A DNA stretch of 64,000 nt from Enterobacteria phage T6. The position numbers and the translations under genes were made by a program. This document shows positions 2,473 to 2,972 of the stretch, piece after piece (the first letter of the stretch is position 1; each line of letters opens with the position of its first letter). The stretch lies in the sequence record MH550421; one strand, written 5' to 3'. Under the pieces are notes generated by a model. That model had not been told where the DNA came from and did not search any database. It saw only the letters and a list, made by a program, of their open reading frames with translations.

Positions 2473-2559
2473 TGGTGGGGAGTGGTGGAGTCGAACCACC
2501 CGAGTCGCAATGACAATGAATTTACAGTCCACACCGCTACCTCTACGGGATAACTCCCC
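2473..2559 (-). tRNA. tRNA-Tyr (GUA), type II with long variable arm
   Basis: Acceptor GGGGAGU/ACUCCCC, anticodon stem GUGGA/UUCAU, loop CUGUAAA, T-arm GGUGG-UUCGACU-CCACC, 3' ACCA. Confidence 0.7.
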
Positions 2560-2568
2560 TAATTAATT

Positions 2569-2645
2569 TGGTGACCCAGACCAGATTTGAACTGGTAACC
2601 TTTCCCTTATGAGGGGACTGCTGCTAACCATTGAGCTACAGGGCC
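2569..2645 (-). tRNA. tRNA with CAU anticodon (Ile2 or Met)
   Basis: Acceptor GGCCCUG/CUGGGUC with one U-U mismatch, loop CUCAUAA, T-arm ACCAG-UUCAAAU-CUGGU, 3' ACCA; D-arm imperfect in hand fold. Confidence 0.55.
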
Positions 2646-2646
2646 T

Positions 2647-2722
2647 TGGTGCTGATTGACGGAATCGAACCGCCGACATCCTCATTACAAGTGAGGTGCT
2701 CTACCTACTGAGCTACACGGAG
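2647..2722 (-). tRNA. tRNA-Thr (UGU)-like gene with non-pairing acceptor stem (possible pseudo or chimeric tRNA)
   Basis: Canonical D-arm GCUC/GAGC, anticodon arm CCUCA-CUUGUAA-UGAGG, T-arm GGCGG-UUCGAUU-CCGUC, 3' AAUCAGC-A-CCA, but 5' strand CUCCGUG pairs at only 3 of 7 positions. Confidence 0.5.
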
Positions 2723-2732
2723 TAGATTAAAT

Positions 2733-2806
2733 TGGAGCGGATAATGAGAATCGAACTCACATCATCAGATTGGAAGTCTGAGGTAATACCATTATACGAT
2801 ATCCGC
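2733..2806 (-). tRNA. tRNA-Gly (UCC)
   Basis: Acceptor GCGGAUA/UAUCCGC, anticodon arm UCAGA-CUUCCAA-UCUGA, T-arm GUGAG-UUCGAUU-CUCAU, 3' UCCA. Confidence 0.75.
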
Positions 2807-2811
2807 AAATT

Positions 2812-2898
2812 TGGTGCGAGAAGTGGGACTCGAACCCACAAGGAAATCATTCCGCAGCATTTTAAGTGCTGTGCCTTTACCAATTTGACCATTCTCGC
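2812..2898 (-). tRNA. tRNA-Leu (UAA), type II
   Basis: Acceptor GCGAGAA/UUCUCGC, anticodon arm CAGCA-CUUAAAA-UGCUG, variable arm GGAA/UUCC, T-arm GUGGG-UUCGAGU-CCCAC, 3' ACCA. Confidence 0.75.
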
Positions 2899-2899
2899 G

Positions 2900-2972
2900 C
2901 TGGGAATAAAGGACTCGAACCTTTGCATCTAGCAGTCAAAGTGCTATGCCTTACCAACTTGGCTAATTCCCA
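2900..2972 (-). tRNA. tRNA-Gln (UUG), CCA not encoded; abuts tRNA-Leu
   Basis: Acceptor UGGGAAU/AUUCCCA, anticodon arm UAGCA-CUUUGAC-UGCUA, T-arm AAAGG-UUCGAGU-CCUUU; one nt from the Leu 5' end, like a dimeric precursor. Confidence 0.7.

Follow-up and report, generated by a model that had tools for sequence, protein, structure and literature searches.

What sets the tRNA gene cluster of phage T6 apart from that of T4, and does the difference reflect replacement of a whole tRNA module or a few local changes? The window analysed here is a stretch of 64,000 nucleotides from T6 (MH550421), in which the interval 2473-2972 is the exact span from the 3' end of tRNA-Tyr to the 5' end of tRNA-Gln. A preliminary description of this interval had reported Tyr and CAU tRNA genes together with the absence of Pro and Ser, and had interpreted this composition as localised replacement of the tRNA module, plausibly driven by the homing endonuclease SegB. 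The evidence assembled below makes a different history very probable: the T6 cluster is a T-even cluster of the type found in Yersinia phage PST, from which 165 bp were lost through the repeat TAGCTCAGT, leaving a Pro/Thr hybrid gene and six working tRNA genes.

Composition of the T6 tRNA gene cluster

Positions 1300-3300 of the window were compared with the phage collection by megablast, giving 100% identity over the full length to the T6 record AP018814, 99.7% identity to PST, and 96.7-96.8% identity over 92% of the query to T4. AP018814 and NC_054907 hold the same T6 sequence and represent two records of one genome. The complete match to T6 shows that the region is the tRNA gene cluster of a reference phage whose genome is sequenced and annotated. 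Its position, its T4-orthologous tRNA genes and its segB-Arg-rnaD-rnaC arrangement place it within the T-even (Tequatrovirus) tRNA gene cluster with segB. The annotation tables of T6, T4 and PST show a conserved site, with co-oriented tandem tRNA genes lying between the trna.2-4 ORFs and e.8.

ARAGORN calls six tRNA genes, all on the minus strand: Gln, Leu, Gly, CAU, Tyr and Arg. The segB gene lies between Tyr and Arg, separating the last upstream tRNA gene from tRNA-Arg, and homologues of rnaD and rnaC follow Arg. The features are given below in transcription order.

2899..2972, minus strand: tRNA-Gln (UUG); ARAGORN; Rfam tRNA model 66 bits, full length; identity to T4 73/73
2812..2898, minus strand: tRNA-Leu (UAA), type II; ARAGORN; Rfam 59.3 bits; identity to T4 87/87
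2733..2806, minus strand: tRNA-Gly (UCC); ARAGORN; Rfam 65.8 bits; identity to T4 74/74
2647..2722, minus strand: Pro/Thr hybrid with anticodon UGU, probably a pseudo-tRNA; Pro positions 1-7 joined to Thr positions 8-76; RefSeq tRNA-Thr (KMB99_gt004)
2707..2715, minus strand: crossover repeat TAGCTCAGT; tRNA positions 8-16, common to both D-arms (Pro and Thr); 165-bp deletion junction
2569..2645, minus strand: CAU tRNA, equivalent to T4 tRNA-Ile (Ile2/lysidine type, as predicted), CCA encoded; ARAGORN; identity to T4 74/74
2473..2559, minus strand: tRNA-Tyr (GUA), type II; ARAGORN; identity to T2L tRNA-Tyr 86/87
2412..2571, minus strand: segment differing from T4, comprising the Ile CCA, a spacer, tRNA-Tyr, a 46-nt spacer and segB codons 1-5
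1761..2426, minus strand: segB, free-standing GIY-YIG homing endonuclease gene; ORF; 95% amino acid identity to T4 SegB; Pfam GIY-YIG 26.1 bits (above cut-off)
1681..1755, minus strand: tRNA-Arg (UCU); ARAGORN; identity to T4 75/75
1560-1679, minus strand: rnaD homologue (species 2); BLAST against annotated T4 rnaD, 88%
1415-1553, minus strand: rnaC homologue (species 1); BLAST against annotated T4 rnaC, 97%

Both small-RNA homologues downstream of tRNA-Arg are unannotated in the T6 RefSeq record.

ARAGORN returned no tRNA genes in the remaining 105 kb of the T6 record, supplied as three further pieces, and BLAST likewise detected nothing of the Pro and Ser gene bodies, whether in the window or in the remainder of that record. 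Pro and Ser are thus truly absent from the T6 genome; the preliminary description had found neither. Its gene order (Gln, Leu, Gly, a Thr-like gene with UGU, CAU, type II Tyr, segB, Arg), with anticodons and coordinates, is borne out by ARAGORN, the ORF and the alignments, and the T4 order that it gave (Gln-Leu-Gly-Pro-Ser-Thr-Ile, then Arg) agrees with both the T4 annotation and ARAGORN. Automated prediction returns a complement other than that of T4, in accordance with the anticodons assigned by hand, and the presence of Tyr in T6 and its absence from T4 is a real difference in composition, evident from ARAGORN and the alignments alike.

The Pro-Ser deletion and its junction

Nucleotide alignment of T6, T4 and PST, one of the checks proposed at the outset, reduces the difference between the clusters to the Tyr segment and a single deletion. 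The deletion is one clean gap in T6, opening at Pro position 8, closing at position 8 of Thr and measuring 165 bp against PST and 170 bp against T4. The 9-bp repeat TAGCTCAGT occupies positions 8-16 in both the Pro and the Thr genes, and the crossover lies inside it. The deletion has taken out the Pro gene body, the complete Ser gene and the 5' strand of the Thr acceptor stem, so that the sequence across the junction reads CTCCGTG followed by TAGCTCAGTAGG. The junction keeps the tRNA register, falls in sequence shared by the two parent genes and has lost the genes between them, which together define a hybrid gene. The loss of Pro and Ser is an internal, repeat-mediated deletion and not a substitution.

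The Ser-Thr junction is intact in 474 phage records. The full-length hybrid junction is confined, within the phage collection, to T6 (two records, one genome) and CJY920; these were the full-length matches at or above 97.5% identity to an 81-nt junction query, which discriminates poorly, since Pro and Thr resemble each other so closely in the D-arm that it matches ordinary Gly-Pro junctions at 95%. An exact-match scan of IMG/VR and of metagenome contigs found no hybrid junction, a result of little weight given that the intact-Thr controls recovered just 1 and 4 contigs, showing how scarce T4-type clusters are in these collections.

CJY920 (PQ349265) carries the same Pro/Thr junction in a T4-like backbone (extracted locus 570-1810). 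Relative to T6, its cluster is without Tyr, has a T4-type spacer and contains a different tRNA-Arg gene, and it has different SNPs on either side of the junction, 4 nt upstream of it and about 47 nt downstream. The 3' end of its hybrid gene is further decayed, with ACCA changed to ATATCA, and its segB, a gene present in both junction-bearing phages, contains a 1-nt deletion. The record is flagged UNVERIFIED with apparent frameshifts, so that some of these differences may be sequencing errors and CJY920 is weak as independent confirmation. The pattern across the two phages suggests independent recurrence at the same repeat; alternatively, the CJY920 junction may have been transferred by recombination, or may be an error in that record.

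Codon usage in the long ORFs of T6 gives no sign of adaptation to the loss of these tRNAs. Within their families, CCA accounts for 40% of Pro codons, UCA for 28% of Ser codons and ACA for 30% of Thr codons, all measured in T6 only. Codons of the lost tRNAs are still common, which fits a recent or neutral loss.

The hybrid gene annotated as tRNA-Thr

In the gene left at the junction, the 5' strand of the Pro acceptor stem leads directly into unaltered Thr sequence that spans positions 8-76 and includes the ACCA end, and this Thr part is identical to T4 at all 69 positions. Its D, anticodon and T arms agree with the tRNA family model RF00005, and its acceptor stem does not: three of the seven required pairs can form, one of them Watson-Crick. 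By comparison, the stem is complete (7/7) in the Thr genes of PST and T4 and in five of the six other T6 tRNAs, the CAU tRNA having 6/7. RF00005 matches the hybrid locally, over model positions 8-63, with a score of 49.4 bits that exceeds the gathering threshold, whereas for the intact PST Thr the match is full-length, at 75.4 bits. ARAGORN makes no call at 2647-2722. The same program calls Thr in T4, PST, a48, Pu-Krd-SF5, BP32, HY03 and one IMG/VR contig, and not in T6 or CJY920. The minimum-energy fold of the hybrid retains the three arms and closes them with a 4-bp stem that is out of register, which is predicted to sequester both the discriminator base and the C that opens the CCA end.

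A tRNA needs its acceptor helix for processing by RNase P, for charging by the aminoacyl-tRNA synthetase and for delivery by EF-Tu. As this helix cannot form, the product is most likely neither processed nor charged, and the hybrid is probably a non-functional pseudo-tRNA. Were it instead a functional tRNA-Thr, as its label in RefSeq NC_054907 implies, T6 would have lost just Pro and Ser. The annotation itself, the arms and ACCA end identical to those of T4 Thr, and the above-threshold local Rfam score speak for a functional gene; set against them are the disrupted stem, the missing ARAGORN call where all intact homologues are called, the predicted sequestration of the 3' end, the dependence of all three tRNA-binding partners on the acceptor helix and the additional decay of the 3' end in CJY920, and a functional tRNA-Thr is on balance very improbable. 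The working set of T6 is most likely six genes: Gln, Leu, Gly, Ile, Tyr and Arg. Chihara et al. (2026) cloned the hybrid as 'tRNAThr', with no mention of the Pro-Ser deletion (PMC13096335).

The CAU tRNA and the tRNA-Tyr segment

The CAU tRNA had been proposed as a further departure from T4. It matches the annotated T4 tRNA-Ile at 74 of 74 positions, so that no difference between the phages exists there, and the T4 gene is likewise labelled Met by ARAGORN through a naive reading of the anticodon. The T4 gene is annotated as isoleucine-accepting; in a tRNA-Ile2, C34 is converted to lysidine and the molecule is charged with isoleucine. By its sequence identity the T6 gene belongs to the same tRNA-Ile2 type and is predicted to read AUA via lysidine. 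The two phages diverge at the end of this gene, where T4 has ...GGGTCA-T and both T6 and PST have ...GGGTCA-CCA. In the RefSeq record the gene is labelled 'tRNA-Met' (KMB99_gt003) despite having the T4 tRNA-Ile sequence, and the labels of KMB99_gt003 and KMB99_gt004 look wrong or misleading.

From the Ile CCA to segB codon 6, T6 and PST share about 160 bp where the alignments show an unrelated stretch of about 54 nt in T4. This segment adjoining segB is the only sequence in the T6 cluster that is non-homologous to T4. Its homology to T2L covers the spacer and tRNA-Tyr as far as ACCAATT; past that point, no similarity to a remnant of the T2L tRNA-Asn gene was detected between T6 Tyr and segB. 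Homologues of the T6-type tRNA-Tyr are present in 624 phage records (about 600), against just 21 records, mostly T4 strains, with the T4-type Ile-segB junction that is without Tyr, which makes the Tyr-less cluster of T4 the unusual state. Judged from these counts, most Tequatrovirus clusters ordinarily include tRNA-Tyr; T4 is the exception, and the gene is no gain of T6.

Scored with generic covariance models, T6 tRNA-Tyr gave its best match to tRNA-Sec at 30.9 bits, below threshold, with the general tRNA model lower still. The gene is expressed in T6, where its tRNA has an anti-Septu role and is described as relatively unstable (PMC13096335).

SegB and the origin of the deletion

SegB cuts the T-arm motif GGTTCRANTCC, which is present in nearly every tRNA gene of the cluster, with tRNA-Asn of T2L as its best site and the Ser gene as a secondary site (Brok-Volchanskaya et al. 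2008, PMC2330249). The enzyme drives co-conversion of the tRNA region in crosses, and its homing replaces about 1.25 kb of the T2L cluster in crosses of T4 with T2L (PMC2330249). In more recent work, Septu was found to cleave tRNA-Tyr, which T4 does not carry, and SegB together with UvsX/UvsY was found to amplify a 718-bp tRNA-Tyr/segB unit at a microhomology, allowing T6 to escape Septu; a 28-aa truncation of SegB was reported with the amplification (Chihara et al., Nat Commun 2026, PMC13096335). The T6 sequence contains a 9-nt direct repeat, CTAAT(G/T)AAT, in the forms CTAATGAAT and CTAATTAAT at 1841-1849 and 2559-2567. The two copies are spaced by exactly 718 bp, which fits both the published unit and the published truncation (PMC13096335). 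The left boundary of the difference between T4 and T6 falls exactly at the point where tRNA-Ile ends on its 3' side, a location of SegB sites. It is plausible, and in keeping with this literature, that SegB influenced the Tyr/segB boundary.

For the deletion itself, the starting point would be a cluster in the order Gln-Leu-Gly-Pro-Ser-Thr-Ile(CAU)-Tyr-segB-Arg-rnaD-rnaC. Recombination or annealing between the copies of TAGCTCAGT in the Pro and Thr D-arms would then have taken out the 165 bp. We infer that a SegB break may have triggered the event, presumably within the Pro-Ser interval, where Ser offers a known secondary site; the ends would then be resected and the D-arm repeats on either side annealed, mirroring the published amplification in reverse. 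Spontaneous unequal recombination, with no part for SegB, would yield the same junction, and the data fit both routes. The crossover itself falls in the D-arm, which is not a SegB site. The role that the preliminary description had given to SegB thus retains published support at the level of the region (PMC2330249, PMC13096335), and the Pro-Ser loss proper is a repeat-mediated deletion for which a SegB trigger is conjectural.

The broader idea that a whole tRNA module was exchanged for a foreign one through SegB-driven homing draws on the replacement documented in the T4 x T2L crosses, on the T2-like sequence of the Tyr segment next to segB and on the breakpoint at the 3' end of tRNA-Ile. Such an exchange is scarcely credible for the cluster as it stands, in which Gln, Leu, Gly, Ile and Arg match the T4 genes at 100%, Thr is the same from position 8 onward, SegB is 95% identical to its T4 counterpart, the non-homologous sequence is limited to the roughly 160 bp beside segB, and Pro and Ser were removed by an internal deletion at a repeat rather than by substitution. 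Two local events suffice to account for the difference, and the module replacement originally proposed does not hold.

A deletion restricted to one stock, or an assembly artefact, would also leave Pro and Ser missing from the record without being a trait of the T6 lineage. Laboratory hosts allow T4 to grow without its tRNA genes, and stocks can therefore fix deletions of this kind. The collection contains a single genome of this phage (AP018814 = NC_054907), meaning that the deletion could be stock-specific; PST is 99.7% identical yet intact, and no environmental contig in the IMG/VR and metagenome scans has the hybrid junction. An artefact is opposed by the length of the repeat, since 9 bp would not make a short-read assembly collapse, and by a junction in perfect tRNA register. 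The same junction also occurs in the unrelated CJY920 record, and independent long reads of a T6 stock, mapped to AP018814, are in agreement with the 718-bp repeat spacing (PMC13096335). An artefact or single-stock origin is accordingly unlikely, though it deserves to be kept in mind, and a stock-specific deletion would only date the event, being compatible with loss of 165 bp from a PST-type cluster through TAGCTCAGT.

A more speculative extension of this deletion model is that SegB breaks in the array lead to recurrent contraction as well as amplification, through annealing of D-arm repeats, which are nearly the same from one tRNA gene to the next. T6 (PST-like, with Tyr) and CJY920 (T4-like, Tyr-less, with another Arg gene) would then owe the Pro/Thr junction that they share, in two different backbones, to a process that recurs. 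We consider such contraction rather doubtful at present; if true, it would make a homing endonuclease a two-way tuner of phage tRNA repertoires.

Relation to known clusters and significance

The T6 cluster as a whole is known biology, both annotated and published. Variability of T-even tRNA clusters around segB was already described in 2008 (PMC2330249), and the contrast between T6 with tRNA-Tyr and T4 without it is explicit in the 2026 paper, together with the functions of Tyr and SegB (PMC13096335). The hybrid Pro/Thr gene appears to be unreported: in the literature outside the work of the 1970s-80s, to which McClain and Foss belong, no report of the hybrid or of the CJY920 junction was found. 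In Cell in 1984 (38:225), McClain and Foss reportedly described hybrid tRNA genes in T4 deletion mutants, formed by unequal recombination at homologous stretches of two tRNA genes from this cluster, with loss of the genes between and the ends joined in register. Those hybrids reportedly arose in selected laboratory mutants, whereas the T6 case is found in a sequenced reference genome. The hybrid and the CJY920 junction are a fresh example of a familiar type of event. The study of Chihara et al. concerns the same phage, reference genome and locus, with a gain in copy number there (PMC13096335) in place of the loss described here.

The practical consequence is a correction of the annotation. What RefSeq lists as the tRNA-Thr of T6 fuses Pro with Thr and has a broken acceptor stem, and the 'tRNA-Met' is T4 tRNA-Ile. 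The usable tRNAs of T6 would number six, not seven, with Pro, Ser and Thr effectively lost, which is relevant to users of T6 who study phage tRNAs against tRNA-targeting defences.

Among the related clusters, T4 (NC_000866) has Gln, Leu, Gly, Pro, Ser, Thr and Ile, then segB, then Arg, rnaD and rnaC, in the same position, orientation and order as T6. Gln, Leu, Gly, Ile and Arg are shared at 100%, SegB at 95% and rnaC at 97%; T6 differs in being without Pro and Ser and in having the hybrid, Tyr, the Ile CCA, another spacer and other segB codons 1-5. PST (NC_027404) and a48 combine the T4 set with Tyr, and their Ile-Tyr-segB-Arg order and spacers are as in T6. PST, at 99.7% identity to T6 over 2 kb, retains Pro, Ser and an intact Thr for a total of nine tRNAs, so that T6 equals PST minus 165 bp. 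T2L (AJ880101) is more distant in arrangement, with Gln, Leu, Gly, Pro, Ser, trna.1, Met', Tyr, Asn, Arg' and trna.2 and without segB (PMC2330249). It resembles T6 in its Gln-Leu-Gly start and in tRNA-Tyr, which is identical at 86 of 87 positions and preceded by the same upstream spacer, and it departs from T6 in having no Thr and in carrying Asn at the place of T6 segB.

The clusters of Pu-Krd-SF5 and BP32 have an HNH endonuclease ORF instead of Gln, and that of HY03 is without Gln and without Tyr. In all three, an ORF of 202 aa occupies the site of the missing tRNA-Gln (extracted loci: Pu-Krd-SF5 2043-2651, BP32 2436-3044, HY03 1298-1906), annotated as HNH endonuclease in Pu-Krd-SF5 and BP32 and as hypothetical in HY03. 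The cluster here offers a second case of tRNA loss associated with a nuclease, at least in Pu-Krd-SF5 and BP32. In BP32, ARAGORN also calls a 94-nt 'tRNA-Lys(ttt)' at 415-508 of the extracted locus, downstream of tRNA-Arg and near the site of T4 rnaC/rnaD, which may be spurious or may reflect a tRNA-like fold of a small RNA.
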